NCBI GenBank assembly: GCA_036252695.1 | Contig: GCA_036252695.1_4122.1 | From: a phage | Direction: 5' to 3' (one strand) | DNA length: 64,000 bases | Part shown: one piece after another, positions 18,545 to 29,246 of the stretch | How the letters are laid out: the number at the start of each line of letters is the position of its first letter | Position numbering within the stretch: position 1 is the stretch's first letter | Made by a program: the position numbers and the translations under genes | Notes under the pieces: generated by a model | What the model was told of the DNA's origin: nothing | Database searches by the model: none | The model's input: the letters and a program-made list of their open reading frames with translations, nothing else

Positions 18545-18949
18545 ATGAATATACGTTCAGTACGAATATTTTCATTTGTTGATATGAATAAAAAACACTC
18601 TTATGTGTTTGAAAATGTCAATAAGTTAAATCCTCATACGGCAAAAATGATTGAAACCATGAAGAACTTGAGTTTACATATAGAAGTTTACTATCTTCAT
18701 GACGATTCTGTTTATGTATATGATGATGGATGGTATGACGGTGTGTTTTATGATGACATTAGCACTACTGCTGATTACTACTTTCTAGTGAGTAATCCAC
18801 TATTCAGTACTAAAACTTTGTTTGACATTACCGATACAAGCGTGTATGATACAAGTCATGTTGAGTTACTTAAGTTTGATCCAGTATTATTCAACAAAGA
18901 GACGGCGTATTGGATGACTGATTTCTTTTCAAATATTCCAGTAAAATAG
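18545..18949 (+). CDS. hypothetical protein
   Basis: ATG at 18545 directly after the upstream stop; reading frame of track ORF 18509..18949. Confidence 0.5.
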   Translation: MNIRSVRIFSFVDMNKKHSYVFENVNKLNPHTAKMIETMKNLSLHIEVYYLHDDSVYVYDDGWYDGVFYDDISTTADYYFLVSNPLFSTKTLFDITDTSVYDTSHVELLKFDPVLFNKETAYWMTDFFSNIPVK

Positions 18950-18951
18950 TT

Positions 18952-18979
18952 TGGACATTTTAAATCTTAGTGATATAAT
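18952..18979 (+). promoter_or_regulatory. sigma70-like early promoter
   Basis: tggaca, 16-nt spacer, TG-a-tataat, about 35 nt upstream of clpP. Confidence 0.55.
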
Positions 18980-22103: not shown

Positions 22104-22357
22104 CAGTAATAATTATTATTGCTTTTCTAATAACAGTGTTTTTTATTTTTATGTTATATATAGTTGCTATGGATGAACCTAATACTTCTTTTCGAAATTA
22201 TGAAGTTCGTTTTTCTGCACAAAATAATAAGTACTATATTGTAAACTGTATACACCGTAGTGAGAAAAGGGTAACAAGTAGATTTGGATTTACCATTTAT
22301 TATAAAGACCGAGTAGAAGCTGATATGATTTGTCAGAAGCTTAATACTGTAGAATAA
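22100..22357 (+). CDS. small membrane protein
   Basis: 85 aa with an N-terminal hydrophobic helix; ATGA overlap with cd. Confidence 0.5.
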   Translation: MTVIIIIAFLITVFFIFMLYIVAMDEPNTSFRNYEVRFSAQNNKYYIVNCIHRSEKRVTSRFGFTIYYKDRVEADMICQKLNTVE

Positions 22358-22384
22358 AAAAAGGAGCCGTATGGCTCCTTTTTT
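22356..22384. terminator. bidirectional rho-independent terminator
   Basis: Perfect palindrome aaaaaaggagcc-gtat-ggctcctttttt between convergent genes. Confidence 0.65.
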
Positions 22385-22385
22385 G

Positions 22386-22763
22386 TTAACCAGGGAGGTT
22401 ACAATAATACAAATCCCAAGGGTGATATTTCATCGCACCAGTACTCAATTTAATTTTATGAAACTGGAATGATTCGGCAAATGCACTATCGTCAATCTTA
22501 ATACAAAAAGTGTTTTTGGCTAGAGTTGGTGCAATTTCCAATGCTGTTTTAGATGCATCTAATCTAATTTTATCTTTATCATAACTAGTGATAGTTACAA
22601 AACGATAAACATTAAAATCAGTATCAATGAGATCGTAAACACAACTAGAACGTTGATTAAAGATGTTCAAGTTATATTTCAATTCACCGTTTATATTAGC
22701 TGCGGTTACACAAAACCCGCCGATATTGAATGGTAGTTTACCTTGTGCTGCGATAGCTTTCAT
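22386..22763 (-). CDS. hypothetical protein (only minus-strand gene in the window)
   Basis: 125-aa ORF on the opposite strand with AAGGAAA RBS (minus strand); bidirectional terminator on one side, AT-rich promoter region on the other. Confidence 0.55.
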   Translation of the reverse strand: MKAIAAQGKLPFNIGGFCVTAANINGELKYNLNIFNQRSSCVYDLIDTDFNVYRFVTITSYDKDKIRLDASKTALEIAPTLAKNTFCIKIDDSAFAESFQFHKIKLSTGAMKYHPWDLYYCNLPG

Positions 22764-22833
22764 ATTTTATTTCCTTTTTTAAATATAAGTATGAAATATA
22801 TTTGTTTTTTACATCAGATGCACCATGAACTAG

Positions 22834-22862
22834 TTGACAAAACATCAGTGGTATGATATGAT
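22834..22862 (+). promoter_or_regulatory. sigma70-like promoter (TTGACA-17-TATGAT)
   Basis: Consensus -35 with 17-nt spacer in the divergent intergenic region. Confidence 0.45.
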
Positions 22863-22924
22863 CTGTTATAAACTGTACACCTTAAGTTTTATTTTTAAAA
22901 ATTTGAGTTAAGTACAGAAAAAGT

Positions 22925-22953
22925 TTGACTTAAGTGTTTAAGTACTATATTAT
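22925..22953 (+). promoter_or_regulatory. second sigma70-like promoter (TTGACT-17-TATTAT)
   Basis: Tandem to the previous promoter, about 35 nt upstream of the protease gene. Confidence 0.4.
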
Positions 22954-22988
22954 TTATATCTTCCTAAACAAAATTGAGGACTTGTTAT

Positions 22989-23597
22989 ATGAAAAGACTA
23001 TGGCTTGAAGTGATACAAGCAGCGATGTTTCTATTGTTAATAAATTTTCCAGCCAGTGCTGGTATTGAAAGTAAAAATGTGATAAAGTATAATCCTGAAA
23101 CCCGAAATGTATATTTCATATCAGATATTACAGATGGGTCACTCAAGAGAATGATAGAGTTGTATGATAAAGAACACTATGATACCATCACAATTACATC
23201 TCCTGGTGGTGATTTTGATGCAGGTATTCGAATGGCAAACTTTGTTAGAGACAATGGGATAAATTTAATTGTTTCTAGGTATTGCAATTCAGCATGTACT
23301 GTGGTATTCTTTAGTGTATCTCCCGAAAAGCGATATATGACAAATCGCTCAGTACTGGGTCTTCATAACATTTCGATTAAAAGTAATGTTACTGATGGTG
23401 ATAATTCATTTGTGTCTGTAAGACAGCTATCAACTTTTACCGAAGAAATGGCAACAAAGGTAGGTTTCCTTTTTTCACTATATGCAGCAAATGGAATCCC
23501 ACCAGAAGTTCTATTTAGAGTTAGTCGTTCTCGTGGTGAAGATGTTGTAATATTAACAAAACCAGAACTGGTTTTTTACGGTTCAGTCAAACAATAA
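22989..23597 (+). CDS. ClpP-like (SPGG-motif) serine protease with a signal peptide
   Basis: ATG at 22989 after TGAGGA; hydrophobic N-terminus ending ASAG; ITSPGGDFDAG core and CNSAC / LGLHN at the positions of the ClpP Ser and His. Confidence 0.55.
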   Translation: MKRLWLEVIQAAMFLLLINFPASAGIESKNVIKYNPETRNVYFISDITDGSLKRMIELYDKEHYDTITITSPGGDFDAGIRMANFVRDNGINLIVSRYCNSACTVVFFSVSPEKRYMTNRSVLGLHNISIKSNVTDGDNSFVSVRQLSTFTEEMATKVGFLFSLYAANGIPPEVLFRVSRSRGEDVVILTKPELVFYGSVKQ

Positions 23598-23667
23598 AAA
23601 TAATTAAAATAACAGGATGATTATGATGTACTTCCTTTGTTATTAATTATATTGAGATTATATAACT

Positions 23668-23928
23668 ATGACAAACATCCAAAACTTGACATCTATTATT
23701 TTTTATGCTACTGTAGTAATGTATGCTACAGTTATTTTTCTAACAGTTTTCATTTACAAAGATTATCGTAATGGCTTTATTGATCCAACTACAATGAAGT
23801 TCAATTCAAAATTCGAAGCAATAATTTATTATGTACTATCAACTTCATACTTGGTGTGCCTAATGTTGTTAGGAGCACTAATTTATATCTTATACACAAC
23901 ATTATTTGCAATTGGAGCTATTTTATGA
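23668..23928 (+). CDS. small membrane protein
   Basis: 86 aa with several hydrophobic helices. Confidence 0.5.
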   Translation: MTNIQNLTSIIFYATVVMYATVIFLTVFIYKDYRNGFIDPTTMKFNSKFEAIIYYVLSTSYLVCLMLLGALIYILYTTLFAIGAIL

Positions 23929-24518
23929 CCTGTATTATTGCACACACTGACGGAGTAAGTTCTTTTATTGCTGGGGATAAGTTAGGAAGCAATGGATTTA
24001 CAAAAACTGTTCAAACTGAGCCAAAGGTATTCGAGAAAGAATTTATCAAGTTACATGATGATGGACTAACTAGAACTAAAGAAGTAATGGCATTGGGTTA
24101 TACTACATCATTTCGTATGGGTCAGTTGTTAAATTATAACCTTAATTTACCTGAACAAGATGCTAGTCAAACATTTTCACAATATTTGGTTCTTAAAGTT
24201 ATTCCAATCATTCGTCAAATGTTTAAAGAAGAATGGGGTGCACGAGATGCATCACAAGATGTAGGTGGTGGACAATTTATCATTCTCCACAATCATACAA
24301 TCTATGAAGTTCAAGAAGACTTTTCAGTACTACAACCTAAAACAAGAATTACCGCAGTAGGTAGTGGGACATATCATGCAATTGCAGCAATGCAAGCATA
24401 TATTGAAGTTGAGAACGAATCTAAAAAACCACTACACGAACGTATCAAATCAATTTTTAAAATTGTTAGTGATAATGTAACAAGCGTAAGCGAAGAGTTT
24501 GATGTTTTAAAATATTAA
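23925..24518 (+). CDS. HslV-like Ntn-hydrolase (proteasome beta-subunit fold) peptidase
   Basis: Internal ATG with ATGA overlap gives M-T-CIIAHTDGVSSFIAGD (Thr2 nucleophile, like HslV TTIVSV..VIAGDG); later ITAVGSGTYHAIAA resembles HslV IAIGSGGPYAQAA. Confidence 0.55.
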   Translation: MTCIIAHTDGVSSFIAGDKLGSNGFTKTVQTEPKVFEKEFIKLHDDGLTRTKEVMALGYTTSFRMGQLLNYNLNLPEQDASQTFSQYLVLKVIPIIRQMFKEEWGARDASQDVGGGQFIILHNHTIYEVQEDFSVLQPKTRITAVGSGTYHAIAAMQAYIEVENESKKPLHERIKSIFKIVSDNVTSVSEEFDVLKY

Positions 24519-24545
24519 AAGTACTAATATTATAAGAGAGAATAG

Positions 24546-24746
24546 ATGATGGCATACACAATTTATGAATGGGTTTTGAGTTTTTTTATAGTTTTTTCTA
24601 TTGTTGTAATTTATAACAATGCTAAATGCTTATATAGGGACTTGAAATCCAATGGTTATCACAAAGATAATAATTTTATGTATGCCTATCATATTGGAAT
24701 CATTCTGTTATTATCAATATATTTAATTGTTTTTTATAAGGATTGA
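24546..24746 (+). CDS. small membrane protein
   Basis: 66 aa with two hydrophobic helices. Confidence 0.45.
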   Translation: MMAYTIYEWVLSFFIVFSIVVIYNNAKCLYRDLKSNGYHKDNNFMYAYHIGIILLLSIYLIVFYKD

Positions 24747-24748
24747 AT

Positions 24749-25501
24749 ATGATATCAGAAAAATTTATAAGCAATGAAGGTAAAAAGCGATTACTGATTA
24801 TATCAGGTGCAGGACTTTCTGTTGAAAGTGGTATGGAACCTTTTCGATTTGATGATGGTTTGTGGGATACATTTAAAATTAATGATGTATGTAACATTGC
24901 TAGTTTAACTACAAAATATCATGTTGTTCATTCTTTCTATAATACATTACGTGTAAAATTGGGACAATGCGAACCAAATGCAATGCATTATTTTATAAAA
25001 TCGTTAGAAGATCAATATGGTGATTGCTTCCTTCATATGACTTCTAACATGGACGATCTTTATACTCGTATTGGTGGTCATGAGCTTAAACTTCATGGAA
25101 ACTTGTGTGAAGTTATTGAAAATTATAGTATCAATTCTGATGATTATAATGTTATTAACTGCGGATACGAACCATACATACCAAAACATGATGTTTTTGC
25201 TAAACCAAATGTAGTAATGATTGGAGAATATCATCGTTATGTTGATGGTATACGCTTACCAATTTACGAAGAACGAAATAATGTGTTGAAATCTCTTAAT
25301 GAAAATGATACAGTTATTGTAATTGGTAGTAGCGATACAGTACTGGTATGGTCGAGATTAGCAGCAGCATTACCATGTTATAGTGTTAATGTTAACATTC
25401 GTAAAAATGATAATGATTTTTTGTTTAATGAAAAAGTTATCAAGCCAGCAACCAAAGCAATACCACATCTAGAGACTATAATTAAGGAACGTATGAAATG
25501 A
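24749..25501 (+). CDS. Sir2-family NAD-dependent deacylase (CobB-type sirtuin)
   Basis: ISGAGLSVESGMEPFRFDDGLW NAD-binding motif; PNAMH..HMTSNMDDL (TQNID-like) and catalytic LHG colinear with E. coli CobB as recalled; ATG at 24749 after AAGGA. Confidence 0.75.
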   Translation: MISEKFISNEGKKRLLIISGAGLSVESGMEPFRFDDGLWDTFKINDVCNIASLTTKYHVVHSFYNTLRVKLGQCEPNAMHYFIKSLEDQYGDCFLHMTSNMDDLYTRIGGHELKLHGNLCEVIENYSINSDDYNVINCGYEPYIPKHDVFAKPNVVMIGEYHRYVDGIRLPIYEERNNVLKSLNENDTVIVIGSSDTVLVWSRLAAALPCYSVNVNIRKNDNDFLFNEKVIKPATKAIPHLETIIKERMK

Positions 25502-26049
25502 GTGTTAAAGAAGTTCCCTTTGGTGAATATGGCTCACGTGCAAATTTTGTATTTTGTTATTTCTTTGCAAGAAAATGTAACCCTTACAAAAACTATGAGT
25601 TGAATGATATACCAGAAGTAAATTTAGTTTTACTACAATTACGATGGGATGGTCTTCTTGGTGGATGTGGTGGAACCGTAGAAAGTACTGATATCTCACT
25701 AGAAGATGCGTTGCGTCGTGAAGTTCAAGAAGAAATGGATTACAATATTTTTGTTTCCCATCTTCGACCACTCAAAACTTTTGAAATTTACCCAGGTGCA
25801 AACAGTCACAGTTTTAGCTATGAAGTAACCTATGACGAGTTGAAACACATTAGAGATGGATACACTAATGCTAAACATGCAAGTGCAGAAGTTGCTGGTG
25901 TAAATTTATGTCATATTTCTCGTTATTCTAAGGGACAAAATCGAGAAGCGGGATATAATAATCTTATGACACAGAACTTCATCGGTACAGCAAGACAAGA
26001 ATTGGAGTATCTGGTTCAAAAAGAAAACTTACTAATTAGTTATCTATAG
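25498..26049 (+). CDS. Nudix-like hydrolase
   Basis: Nudix-box-like GGTVEST..LRREVQEEMDY segment (spacing slightly non-canonical); ATGA overlap with the sirtuin gene. Confidence 0.5.
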   Translation: MSVKEVPFGEYGSRANFVFCYFFARKCNPYKNYELNDIPEVNLVLLQLRWDGLLGGCGGTVESTDISLEDALRREVQEEMDYNIFVSHLRPLKTFEIYPGANSHSFSYEVTYDELKHIRDGYTNAKHASAEVAGVNLCHISRYSKGQNREAGYNNLMTQNFIGTARQELEYLVQKENLLISYL

Positions 26050-26058
26050 GAGTTTAAC

Positions 26059-26379
26059 ATGTCTTACGCAATGTTTTTGGATGATATTCGTGATGCAAAT
26101 CTATATTATCCAAACCAAGATATGGTGGTATGTCGTGACTTTAAAAGTGCATGTGAATATGTTATTGAAAATGGAATTCCAGCATTTGTATCATTCGACC
26201 ATGACTTGGGTGATGTGAGCGAAGACGAAAAGACTGGATATTCTTTTGCTAAGTTTCTTATTGATTATATGTTTGATAATAATATTAAAGAACCGTTTGA
26301 GTACTTTGTTCACAGTAGTAATCCTGTTGGTAAAATTAATATTGAAACATACTTAAACAATGGATTTAACGCATTATGA
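26059..26379 (+). CDS. hypothetical protein, possibly receiver-like fold
   Basis: 106 aa with LDDIRD, VSFDHDLG and VHSSNPVG in the order of receiver-domain acidic pocket / Asp / Ser-Thr positions; weak inference. Confidence 0.45.
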   Translation: MSYAMFLDDIRDANLYYPNQDMVVCRDFKSACEYVIENGIPAFVSFDHDLGDVSEDEKTGYSFAKFLIDYMFDNNIKEPFEYFVHSSNPVGKINIETYLNNGFNAL

Positions 26380-26678
26380 TTCAAACACACATCAAAAGTC
26401 TTATTTGTACTGTTCTGTTAGGTGCAGGAGTTCTTTGGTTCGGACAGTATCACGAGAACACTAAGCGTACCAACATTCACTACAATACCGCAGAAGTTGT
26501 TAGTTTAGGACAATGTAGCGAGTCCAAATGTTCATTCATGTATAAAACCCAAAGTGGTGAAGTACGTAATGGACTATCAAGAGAACCAGTTTCAATTGGT
26601 CAACTTGTTTACCAGGAGTGCTGGGAAGAAAAGGTTCGAGGTTCACGTTGCTATGTTGAATACGAACCAAATATGTAA
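26376..26678 (+). CDS. membrane-anchored hypothetical protein
   Basis: 100 aa with an N-terminal hydrophobic helix; stop-start overlap. Confidence 0.5.
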   Translation: MIQTHIKSLICTVLLGAGVLWFGQYHENTKRTNIHYNTAEVVSLGQCSESKCSFMYKTQSGEVRNGLSREPVSIGQLVYQECWEEKVRGSRCYVEYEPNM

Positions 26679-26738
26679 TAATCCGAGTCAATAACATTAG
26701 TCGAGTACAAGGATGTACTCATAACTCAAGGATGTTTT

Positions 26739-28178
26739 ATGAAAAAATATACAATTGACACAAATGTACTACTATCTGACCCTAATGCATCTATTGCTTT
26801 TGATGGTGCTGCAATCATTCTACCATTTACAGTACTGGAAGAATTGGATTCAATTAAGAGTCGTAATGTAGATGTTTCACGCGATGCTCGTGTTGCTATT
26901 CGTAACATTGAAGCAATTATTGCAGATGCATCACATGATGAGATTAGTAGTACTGGTGTTAATATTGCTGATGTTCATACCAATATGAATCCTGATAGCA
27001 AATTGTTTGTTATTACAAACGAAGAAGCTGAAGCACTAATTCGTACTAAAGGTTCAGAAGAGAAAGTTCAAACCCTTCTCAAAAGCACAGTACCTGATGA
27101 TAAAATCATTCTGGTAGCTTTAGCAACAGAATCAGTACTGGTAACTCGTGATATCAACATGCGTATCAAAGCACTAAGTTATGGTGTCGAGGTACAAGAT
27201 TATCGCCATGATATTGTTATTGGTGATAGTGATTTGATTCACATTGGTCAACACCATTTGGAAATTAATTTTTGGGAAGTATATAGCAACTTAACCAATA
27301 CTAATATTCAATCCGAACAAGTTGGTCGTCGTTTGTATCATTACATTTCTAAAAGCTTGATTGAACATTTGCTTCCACAAAATCTATGCATCGGTGATTA
27401 TCTATATGATGATGCTGACGTATTATTTGTGTACGAAGGACAATCAGCAATTGAGGAAGATGATGGAACACTAACACCAGAAGATATTTTGGTATTCCAA
27501 GACATTGGACAATCAGTGGCTTTACGTGCTAAAGTATGGGATATTAAAGCAAAGAATATCCAACAAGCACTCGCCATCAACAGTATTCTCGATCCTGATG
27601 TACATCTAACAGTACTGCTAGGTTCTGCTGGTACTGGTAAAACACTAATTACAATTGCTACTGCATTAGAATTAGTACTGGAAAAACGTAAATACGACCG
27701 AATCATCTTCTCTAAAACTCAAGACTCACAGTTTGAAGATATTGGTTTCTTGCCAGGTTCAGAAGCAGAAAAAGTGATTCCATTCTGTGGAGCCGCGATT
27801 GATGCGTTAGAGTTTCTTCATAAAGATGATGCCAACCCACAAGGTAGTATTGAAGAGATTATGAAACGTAATGTTATTCAATTTAAAGCACTAAACTTTG
27901 TACGTGGACGTTCATTCACCAACACTATTCTAGTAGTTGATGAATTCCAAAACATTACACCTGCACAAGCAAAAACCATCTTGACACGAGCAGGGTTAAA
28001 CTGTAAAGTAGTAATTATGGGTAACTTGAGTCAGATTGACAGTAAGTTTATTAGTCCTGTTAACAGTGGTTTGACATATGTAACTGAGAAGTTTAAAGAC
28101 TGGGCAGGTTGTCGTGTCATCGAACTAGAAGGTGTTGTTCGTTCACCACTGGCTGAATTTGCTGAAGAAAATATGTAA
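26739..28178 (+). CDS. phoH: PIN-PhoH (PhoH2-like) ATPase
   Basis: N-terminal PIN-like region (YTIDTNVLL) fused to a PhoH-type NTPase with Walker A GSAGTGKT and DEFQN Walker B. Confidence 0.75.
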   Translation: MKKYTIDTNVLLSDPNASIAFDGAAIILPFTVLEELDSIKSRNVDVSRDARVAIRNIEAIIADASHDEISSTGVNIADVHTNMNPDSKLFVITNEEAEALIRTKGSEEKVQTLLKSTVPDDKIILVALATESVLVTRDINMRIKALSYGVEVQDYRHDIVIGDSDLIHIGQHHLEINFWEVYSNLTNTNIQSEQVGRRLYHYISKSLIEHLLPQNLCIGDYLYDDADVLFVYEGQSAIEEDDGTLTPEDILVFQDIGQSVALRAKVWDIKAKNIQQALAINSILDPDVHLTVLLGSAGTGKTLITIATALELVLEKRKYDRIIFSKTQDSQFEDIGFLPGSEAEKVIPFCGAAIDALEFLHKDDANPQGSIEEIMKRNVIQFKALNFVRGRSFTNTILVVDEFQNITPAQAKTILTRAGLNCKVVIMGNLSQIDSKFISPVNSGLTYVTEKFKDWAGCRVIELEGVVRSPLAEFAEENM

Positions 28179-28186
28179 TATTGTAT

Positions 28187-28435: not shown

Positions 28436-28539
28436 TTCATTTGAAGCAATATTGTGGAGTTCTTAATAAATACTTTTATAAGAATAATAATACTTTTTAT
28501 TAAATTAAAAAGAACTCCATGTGTTATTTCAGTTTTTCG

Positions 28540-28566
28540 TCCCTGTCTTTTGGCAGGGATTTTTTA
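28540..28566 (+). terminator. rho-independent terminator
   Basis: tccctg-loop-caggga hairpin followed by a T-run; a separate 10-bp inverted repeat (tggagttctt / aagaactcca) lies upstream. Confidence 0.5.
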
Positions 28567-28661: not shown

Positions 28662-29219
28662 ATGTTTTTTGACCAAACATTTACGTTGTATCACGATTCT
28701 GGTAAAGTTGAGATTGTAGACGATCTACTTCAATACATTGCTGACCATCAAGGGATAGATCGTTTCCACAGTAAGATGAAATTTGATTTAGCAGAATTCA
28801 ACAAAAAGAATCGTGAAACTTTTTGGAAGAACCGTTTCTATTACGAATTGTTCCCAGAAGAGTTTGTGGGTTATTATCTTTGTACTGAAAAAGGATTACT
28901 TGTATCTCCTGATTTACTTATGGGTGAATACATGATACTCTATAATGAGTACTGGGAACATAAACGTAAAGCTCGTGATACGGAATGGCGACATAAGCGT
29001 TCGTATATGTACAAACATAACCACTCCCGATACAAGCGTCCTAAGACTCAACAAGAGCGTCGTATGGCTTGTGCAGTACTGAAGGATGAGGGGGAACCTG
29101 ATATACGTGGAAGACGTAAGATGCGTTCATTACCATCGTATTGGGACGATATCAGAACAAGACATAGTACTGGCTGGAAATACAGTACTAAACGTAAACA
29201 TCAATACAAAGGGAGCTAA
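28662..29219 (+). CDS. hypothetical basic protein
   Basis: 185 aa, Arg/Lys-rich C-terminal half; AAGGAG RBS. Confidence 0.55.
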   Translation: MFFDQTFTLYHDSGKVEIVDDLLQYIADHQGIDRFHSKMKFDLAEFNKKNRETFWKNRFYYELFPEEFVGYYLCTEKGLLVSPDLLMGEYMILYNEYWEHKRKARDTEWRHKRSYMYKHNHSRYKRPKTQQERRMACAVLKDEGEPDIRGRRKMRSLPSYWDDIRTRHSTGWKYSTKRKHQYKGS

Positions 29220-29246
29220 TGCTCCCTAATTTTATAGGTGAACTTT

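Follow-up and report, generated by a model that had tools for sequence, protein, structure and literature searches.

We analyzed a locus at positions 22,834 to 24,518 of a 64,000-nucleotide stretch of phage DNA (GenBank assembly GCA_036252695.1, contig GCA_036252695.1_4122.1; referred to here as the window), in which two peptidase-like genes follow two sigma70-type promoter sequences on the plus strand. The first gene, open reading frame 1 (ORF1; 22989 to 23597; 202 amino acids [aa]), encodes a ClpP-like protein and starts with an ATG that has GAGGA 8 nt upstream. It is followed by ORF2 (23668 to 23928; 86 aa), encoding a small membrane protein, and by ORF3 (23925 to 24518; 197 aa), encoding an HslV-like protein that begins with M-T-C. 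A start of ORF1 at TTG 22974 was rejected because the homologues begin at the position equivalent to ATG 22989. The 2.1 kb around the locus shared 100% identity with Escherichia phage vB_EcoM_CRJP21 and at least 99% with 19 Asteriusvirus jumbo phages (PBECO4/121Q/phAPEC6 group), the genomes of which are approximately 350 kb in size.

The identity of both peptidase genes is public at the annotation level, and our analysis mostly confirms and refines that annotation. Records of well-annotated relatives name ORF1 "protease" and ORF3 "HslV family peptidase," and the GenBank notes for phage 121Q read "protease (ClpP-like)" and "protease (ClpYQ-like)." ORF1 matches phrog_26024 ("protease"), and PHROGs and GenBank both carry protease labels for ORF1 and ORF3. 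What is added here is, first, a large ClpP-like family that appears, on family-wide evidence, to combine exported-type N termini with a Cys-flanked Ser-His center. The other additions are the exact HslV-type active-site register of ORF3 together with its MTC hallmark, the architecture of the terminator and tandem promoters, and the finding that a virion proteome includes neither protein. An original prediction, made from the letters of the window alone, had described the locus as one short operon with an exported ClpP-type protein, a small membrane protein, and an HslV-like protein behind tandem promoters; its parts are taken up below where the relevant results are given.

The ClpP-like protein ORF1

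ORF1 contains an SPGG motif (residues 71 to 74), the segment C99-N-S101-A-C103 (23283 to 23297), and His126 (23364 to 23366). Single-sequence phmmer searches against the PDB yielded only noise for ORF1 as well as for ORF3, and family profiles were therefore needed. A profile of eight close relatives matched ClpP in the PDB (E value, 0.004), and in this alignment SPGG, Ser101, and His126 fell on the oxyanion loop, the nucleophile, and the base of ClpP, respectively. Ser101 and His126 were aligned likewise in a BLAST comparison with the phage's own ClpP (29% identity across the SPGG-Ser-His core). The AlphaFold model (predicted local distance difference test [pLDDT], 93.5) comprises an N-terminal helix (residues 2 to 24), a low-confidence linker, and a domain with the ClpP/crotonase alpha-beta fold and a handle helix. 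Foldseek returned ClpPs alone among the 50 matches listed (E values from 6e-8), and SppA and NfeD were the next-best structural relatives. The ClpP/SPGG-type assignment of the original prediction is thus borne out by the fold and by the alignment of Ser and His to the ClpP nucleophile and base.

When 1.84 billion representatives were searched exhaustively with a profile (E value of ≤1e-3), 1,889 relatives of ORF1 were recovered. Among 150 representatives of this family, SxGG was present in all 150 and CxSxC in 149, while the N termini contained a strongly hydrophobic window in 121 cases and a lipobox-like motif in 24. The only invariant residues in an alignment of 29 sequences (16 to 66% identity) were S71, G73, G74, C99, S101, C103, and H126. 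No Lys was invariant in this alignment, which argues against a Ser-Lys dyad of the type that SppA (family S49) and NfeD/1510-N use. ORF1 differs further from these proteins in being much smaller and single domain, without transmembrane (TM) or OB-fold extensions. Scans of 29 distant ClpP-like relatives with NCBIfam and Pfam gave nothing more specific than ClpP, "ClpP-related head maturation protease," and NfeD; ten distant relatives bear the source name "hypothetical protein" or none, and the genomic context of one chromosomal member (Ferrimonas) was uninformative. On the basis of the family profiles and predicted structures, we assign ORF1 as a putative ClpP-fold Ser-His hydrolase.

The window also encodes a bona fide phage ClpP (19014 to 19709, plus strand; 231 aa; Pfam CLP_protease, E value of 4e-41), which has neither a hydrophobic N terminus nor a signal sequence and is the "cytoplasmic ClpP" of the original prediction. 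Since this ClpP and ORF1 share one fold, the "three distinct peptidase folds" that had been counted reduce to two. Compared with ClpP (family S14, clan SK), ORF1 has an N-terminal signal-peptide-like segment in place of the axial-pore loops, and its nucleophile is flanked by two invariant Cys residues (CxSxC), where ClpP has AASMG. ClpP is a cytoplasmic tetradecamer that works with a Clp AAA+ ATPase, whereas the predicted signal peptide of ORF1 argues against a cytoplasmic partner; ORF1 is presumably ATPase independent, as it would sit outside the cytoplasm. The position equivalent to the third triad residue, ClpP Asp171, lies in an R-G-E-D region that varies in the family, and several relatives lack an acidic residue there. 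The catalytic chemistry of ORF1 may thus differ from that of ClpP, a point that counts against a straightforward ClpP-type reading. Regarding nomenclature, the label "head maturation protease," which some records use for the ClpP-like gene and one record uses for the true ClpP, is corrected here. In the latter record, it is probably a misannotation, given that a separate prohead core scaffold/protease (gp227c) is listed for phAPEC6 at another place in the genome.

The signal-peptide-like segment of ORF1 spans residues 1 to 24 (22989 to 23060). It consists of an MKR n-region, a hydrophobic core of approximately 11 residues (Kyte-Doolittle mean, 2.67), and P-A-S-A|G, with the predicted cleavage site between ASA and G. 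F20, P21, A22, and A24 (i.e., F20-P-A-x-A24) are invariant in the Asteriusvirus-like clade, and more distant members of the family carry textbook cleavable signal peptides or lipoboxes. The n/h/c layout with a conserved AxA motif agrees with the signal sequence originally predicted. We infer export and cleavage from these features: a Sec-type signal peptide, with cleavage probably occurring behind Ala24, would carry ORF1 across the inner membrane, where it would act as an ATP-independent peptidase because the periplasm offers no ATPase partner. Catalysis would rely on Ser101 and His126, apparently as a dyad in view of the missing conserved third acidic residue, with SxGG as the oxyanion loop. 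ORF1 contains exactly two Cys residues, i.e., the pair flanking Ser101, and in the oxidizing periplasm the invariant Cys99 and Cys103 would probably form a disulfide bond at the nucleophile elbow. Likely targets would be peptides or proteins in the envelope or periplasm of the infected cell. We also infer peptidase rather than other hydrolase activity, as we would any substrates, oligomeric state, and expression timing.

Several observations weigh against export followed by cleavage. The signal-peptide call is rule based (n/h/c layout, −3/−1 rule, and family-wide conservation). Within the signal-like segment, Glu7 and Gln10 are invariant among the Asteriusvirus-like phages, an unusual trait in a generic signal peptide, and the homologue in phage RaK2 (L013, 2387 to 2983), which keeps K-E at the corresponding N-terminal position, has FPSHD and no clean AxA site. 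Because of these two features, the N terminus may remain uncleaved and serve as an anchor that has a specific role. ORF1 would then be tethered rather than released, its ClpP-like domain being held at the outer face of the inner membrane in the manner of SppA and NfeD, which are also its next-best structural relatives. It might interact with adjacent small TM proteins, two of which are encoded right downstream (ORF2 and ORF4 [24546 to 24746, plus strand; 66 aa], a second small protein with two TM segments), and the high confidence of the AlphaFold2 model for the N-terminal helix also fits a tether. We nevertheless consider tethering unlikely: the Asteriusvirus-like clade has an invariant A22-x-A24 with Pro at −4, the distant members have the cleavable signal peptides or lipoboxes noted above, and the small TM genes are absent beside the ClpP-like gene in RaK2 and in two distant jumbo-phage contigs (L009 and L012).

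If ORF1 is exported, it would be a self-contained, virus-made periplasmic protease and an entry point to a large, uncharacterized bacterial family with an unusual Cys-flanked nucleophile. A broader proposal, which we offer tentatively and regard as somewhat doubtful, is that the ORF1 family represents an undescribed and widespread group of exported, ATPase-independent ClpP-fold Ser-His peptidases (approximately 1,900 representative clusters in bacteria and RaK2-like jumbo phages), in which a CxSxC disulfide clamps the nucleophile. Jumbo phages would secrete such a peptidase early to remodel the host envelope or periplasm, e.g., to destroy receptors, exclude superinfecting phages, or prepare lysis. 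A literature search turned up no report of an exported ClpP-like family with CxSxC, although its incomplete coverage makes this absence of evidence only.

The HslV-like protein ORF3

ORF3 matched phrog_1040 ("peptidase HslV family") with an E value of 4e-24, and its family profile matched HslV structures (E value, 7e-7) via two aligned stretches. In the N-terminal stretch, MTC..GD..K of ORF3 is aligned without gaps to MTT..GD..K of HslV, and a separate C-terminal stretch aligns GSG. Between them, the two stretches pair Thr1, Asp17, Lys33, and the GSG loop with the corresponding HslV residues; counted from the initiator Met, these are Thr2 (23928 to 23930), Asp18 (23976 to 23978), Lys34 (24024 to 24026), and G146-S-G148. 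The AlphaFold2 model (pLDDT, 92.1) shows the alpha-beta-beta-alpha proteasome fold of N-terminal nucleophile (Ntn) hydrolases, with helices at residues 63 to 72, 84 to 105, 149 to 161, and 170 to 184. Foldseek gave a probability of 1.00 to HslV (E value, 3e-10), BPH, Anbu, and 20S beta subunits, with E values of 3e-10 to 6e-7 for HslV, BPH, and Anbu.

The active-site residues are conserved throughout the family. M1, T2, C3, D18, K34, S62, F63, G116, G146, G148, and V188 are invariant in 29 relatives (down to 27% identity), and 127 of 129 relatives start with MTC, the two exceptions appearing truncated or misannotated at their starts. Methionine aminopeptidase exposes Thr1 in HslV; given that ORF3 likewise has no propeptide, the host enzyme would be expected to expose Thr1 here as well. 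Family profiles and the predicted structure thus identify ORF3 as a probable proteasome/HslV-fold Ntn hydrolase. The earlier description of an HslV-like protein with Thr as the second residue holds, with Asp17 and Lys33 in register with HslV. Likewise, the putative nucleophiles of the two proteins, Ser101 of ORF1 and Thr2 of ORF3, are aligned to those of ClpP and HslV and are invariant in the family alignments.

HslV (ClpQ, family T1B) is the best structural match of ORF3 and resembles it in size, in the lack of a propeptide, and in having Thr right after Met. Sequence identity to HslV is, however, only 13 to 19%. The residue after the Thr nucleophile is an invariant Cys in the ORF3 family (position 2 of the exposed chain; ORF3 Cys3, 23931 to 23933), while HslV and the proteasome beta subunits have Thr there. 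The Asteriusvirus-type proteins also contain an insertion of approximately 17 residues after Lys33 (ORF3 residues ~38 to 55), which was modeled as an extra beta-hairpin; shorter relatives (~180 aa) in other phages do not have this insertion.

Fuchs, Alva, and Lupas (2021) described the phage-associated proteasome homologues PPH, AAH, and CPH (PMC8665760). Like these proteins and phrog_1040, ORF3 belongs with the compact, HslV/BPH-like proteasome homologues of group I that occur in phages. We rejected its assignment to PPH, because PPH has approximately 140 residues and lacks helix H2 (PMC8665760), whereas ORF3 has 197 residues and all four helices. The profile search for the ORF3 family recovered 4,543 protein clusters, predominantly of phage or metagenomic origin. 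With thousands of clusters, nearly all starting with MTC, this family is among the commonest proteasome homologues in phages.

Regarding a possible ATPase partner, no cognate HslU or other AAA+ unfoldase was annotated in the approximately 50 kb inspected. ORF3 could be conceived as a phage-supplied proteolytic core that docks on host HslU, or on a different AAA+ unfoldase of the host, so that ATP-dependent degradation in the infected cell is redirected. E. coli encodes HslU, and HslV is the closest solved relative of ORF3 by both sequence and structure. HslV-like genes without HslU have also been remarked on in another jumbo-phage paper (PMC7823757). We hold docking to be rather unlikely, given the low identity to HslV noted above and template modeling scores (TM-scores) of 0.5 to 0.7. 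BPH and Anbu match ORF3 about as well as HslV does, and no ATPase partner is known for either of them. Moreover, the ~17-residue insertion of the Asteriusvirus proteins is absent from other family members, and phages that infect very different hosts also encode members of the family. Our preferred view is that ORF3 is a cytoplasmic N-terminal-threonine hydrolase of a phage-borne HslV-like proteasome family, in which Asp17, Lys33, and GSG would complete a canonical proteasome-type active site around the Thr1 exposed by host methionine aminopeptidase.

Direct comparisons with curated peptidase models weigh against both assignments. ORF1 scored below the cutoffs of Pfam CLP_protease (E value of 0.004; 17.5 bits versus 20.2) and of the NCBIfam ClpP models (E values of 1e-5 to 1e-2; 15.6 to 24.9 bits versus 228 to 251), and it also scored below the cutoff of NfeD1b_N (E value of 0.05; 13.5 bits versus 40). 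For ORF3, the NCBIfam HslV models gave 19.9 bits versus a cutoff of 137 (NF003964; E value of 5e-4) and 18.9 bits versus 157.75 (TIGR03692), and a Pfam scan yielded no significant match and no Proteasome match. Thus, the placement in peptidase families on which the original prediction depended is upheld by family profiles and folds, which point to ClpP and HslV, but not by direct Pfam and NCBIfam scores. Additionally, a literature search found no functional study of ORF1 or ORF3 and nothing beyond annotation.

These subthreshold scores, together with the missing ClpP Asp in the ORF1 family, would be compatible with one or both proteins being catalytically dead scaffolds or non-peptidase enzymes that kept the fold, and Connectase provides an example of a ligase on the proteasome fold (PMC8665760). 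We judge such a loss or change of function to be very unlikely: in both families, nucleophile, base, and oxyanion motif persist without change even in very divergent relatives, which argues for retained hydrolytic or transpeptidase chemistry.

Promoters, terminator, and extent of the transcription unit

The two promoter sequences that had been predicted are present on the plus strand. P1 (22834 to 22862; TTGACA-17-TATGAT) has a TG-extended −10 element and an 11/12 match, with a putative transcription start near 22869; P2 (22925 to 22953; TTGACT-17-TATTAT) has a 10/12 match, with a putative start near 22960. Both lie within the 225-bp gap that separates a minus-strand gene (22386 to 22763) from ORF1. 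Sigma70-like sites with at least a 10/12 match occurred at a density of 0.63 per kb-strand in the window, which gives a P value of approximately 0.009 for two sites per 225 nt, and 312 of 20,000 composition-matched shuffles reached two such sites. On the other hand, generic sigma70-like matches, which are common in AT-rich DNA, were not regionally enriched (51 found versus 46.9 expected in 8 kb), and this tempers the match statistics.

Stronger support for the promoters comes from positional conservation in sequence comparisons of four diverged lineages, i.e., the window, 121Q, fEgEco12, and L002, a metagenomic relative with a ClpP-like protein that is 51% identical. In all four, P2 ends 33 to 38 nt and P1 ends 126 to 135 nt before the ATG. 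In P2, the 12-mer TTTGACTTAAGT and ATATTATTTAT are invariant across the four lineages, while the flanks have diverged. The conserved P2 12-mer TTGACTTAAGT does not recur here as a motif throughout the genome, with 3 matches versus 2.7 expected. Over the whole window, sites with at least a 10/12 match were more numerous on the plus (coding) strand (59) than on the minus strand (22), a strong bias that would fit the presence of many functional promoters of the host type along the gene array. Two sigma70-like sites also precede the true ClpP gene (TTGACA-17-TATGAT at 18822 and TGGACA-16-TATAAT at 18952; region 18822 to 18979).

Upstream of the promoters, between convergent genes, lies a bidirectional intrinsic terminator (22357 to 22385) with the sequence AAAAAAAGGAGCC-GTAT-GGCTCCTTTTTT, i.e., an A-run, GGAGCC-GTAT-GGCTCC, and a T-run (fold z score, −3.7). 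It is placed between a plus-strand gene and the sole minus-strand gene in approximately 50 kb. Because it would end upstream plus-strand transcription, the gene cluster would need promoters of its own. In fEgEco12, the same hairpin precedes the promoters even though the minus-strand gene is absent, suggesting that the promoters restart transcription after the terminator. A scan with a consensus terminator model missed this hairpin. Rfam over 22300 to 24900 gave nothing except a weak hairpin match that corresponds to the terminator, and the P1 leader RNA was not unusual in structure (z score, −0.8).

The next plus-strand terminator-like hairpins were found at 28539 to 28560 and at 29210 to 29227. 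As the first such hairpin is reached only at approximately 28.5 to 29.2 kb, the predicted transcription unit is about 6 kb long and would run on through the Sir2, Nudix, cREC, and PhoH genes described below. The "one short operon" that had been proposed for the two peptidases is therefore not sustained.

An 8-mer, TTAAGTAC, occurs in 18 copies in the whole window (3.8 expected; none of 100 shuffles reached 18), and two copies, at 22908 and 22938, fall within the P1-P2 region at a spacing of 30 bp. A role of TTAAGTAC as an operator was set aside because its copies lie mostly within coding sequences.

Distribution, gene neighborhood, and interpretation

The HslV-like gene was found in 198 of 50,697 phage records, including T5-like Epseptimavirus, Aeromonas and Vibrio phages, and other jumbo phages; some of these records annotate it as "proteasome subunit-like." The ClpP-like gene was found in 50 phage records, mostly of enterobacterial jumbo phages (Asteriusvirus, the RaK2/K64-1 group, and an Erwinia phage), the weakest partial matches including a 121-kb Bradyrhizobium phage. 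Given the number of records and clusters with the HslV-like gene and the existing protease annotation of both genes, the claim that the arrangement is unusual for a phage does not stand.

The order ClpP-like gene, 86-aa TM protein gene, and HslV-like gene is kept in 121Q, fEgEco12, and L002. ORF2, the small membrane protein that had been noticed between the peptidases, indeed has two hydrophobic segments; it matches no known family in Pfam and PHROG scans and is found at the same position in these three relatives. Its stop codon overlaps the start of ORF3 (ATGA), suggesting translational coupling of the two. In the distant contigs L009 and L012, by contrast with the kept order, an NMNAT/Nudix gene directly follows the ClpP-like gene. 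In L009 (1509 to 10695), this gene is followed by NAMPT, and the HslV-like gene lies further downstream beside Acb1, Sir2, and Nudix-cREC. Salmonella phage 7t3 has the HslV-like gene and lacks the ClpP-like gene. An obligate ClpP-like/HslV-like pair was rejected on account of these intervening genes and the differing distributions. The two peptidase genes, earlier treated as a pair, thus appear from comparative gene order to be neighbors by synteny.

A virion component was likewise rejected as the role of either peptidase. The virion proteome of phAPEC6, comprising 62 proteins, does not include gp345c (HslV-like) or gp346c (ClpP-like), while the neighboring Ig (immunoglobulin)-like gp347 (75% mass spectrometry coverage) and the PhoH-like gp341c were detected in the virions (PMC7247149). 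The absence of both peptidases from this list indicates that they are nonstructural. Phage-encoded nonstructural peptidases are candidates for functions in host takeover or counter-defense, and very few have known substrates.

We propose that the locus is the start of a transcription unit of the host RNA polymerase in an Asteriusvirus jumbo phage. The bidirectional terminator would halt upstream transcription, and the two sigma70-type promoters would restart it and drive a nonstructural accessory array of approximately 6 kb. Two enzymes that are neighbors by synteny would be made from this unit, an exported ClpP-fold hydrolase and a cytoplasmic HslV-like hydrolase. We assign a probability of roughly 0.7 to this reading as a whole.

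Downstream of ORF4, Pfam identified a Sir2-family protein, a Nudt16-like Nudix hydrolase, and a cREC receiver-like protein (24752 to 26379, plus strand), which are conflict genes related to nicotinamide adenine dinucleotide (NAD+) and nucleotides. They are followed on the same strand by genes annotated for a 100-aa protein (a membrane protein according to the annotation of phage E9.1) and for PIN-PhoH. With its counterpart in L009, the island at 24752 to 28179 looks like an NAD+/cyclic-nucleotide counter-defense island. Iyer et al. proposed that cREC, Nudix, and Sir2 belong to NAD+-centered conflict systems and that host proteins are the targets of jumbo-phage peptidases with a patchy distribution, such as ClpP (PMC7824862).

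In line with these proposals, both proteases and the TM protein might form one counter-defense or superinfection-exclusion module within this island that degrades host immune or envelope receptor proteins. Their genes lie directly upstream of those for Sir2, Nudt16-like Nudix, and cREC, and the L009 neighborhood also contains NAMPT, NMNAT/Nudix, and Acb1. The argument is purely one of guilt by association, the gene order corresponds to a widely syntenic early or metabolic region in which dCMP deaminase, DNA ligase, and PhoH are encoded as well, and the two peptidases differ in phyletic distribution; a single module is thus quite unlikely in our view.

Among the remaining features, ORF4 has a counterpart in fEgEco12 (g217), and the annotation of 121Q shows no gene at this position. 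The annotation of phage E9.1 includes a 37-aa ORF (22743 to 22856, plus strand) that overlaps both P1 and the end of the minus-strand gene and is probably a spurious call. The minus-strand gene itself (22386 to 22763) encodes an Ig-like virion structural protein, the homologue of phAPEC6 gp347, and is divergent from the ClpP-like gene. A minus-strand Big_2/structural gene is also located directly upstream of the ClpP-like gene in L002, L012, and RaK2, and this recurrence suggests a conserved divergent junction.

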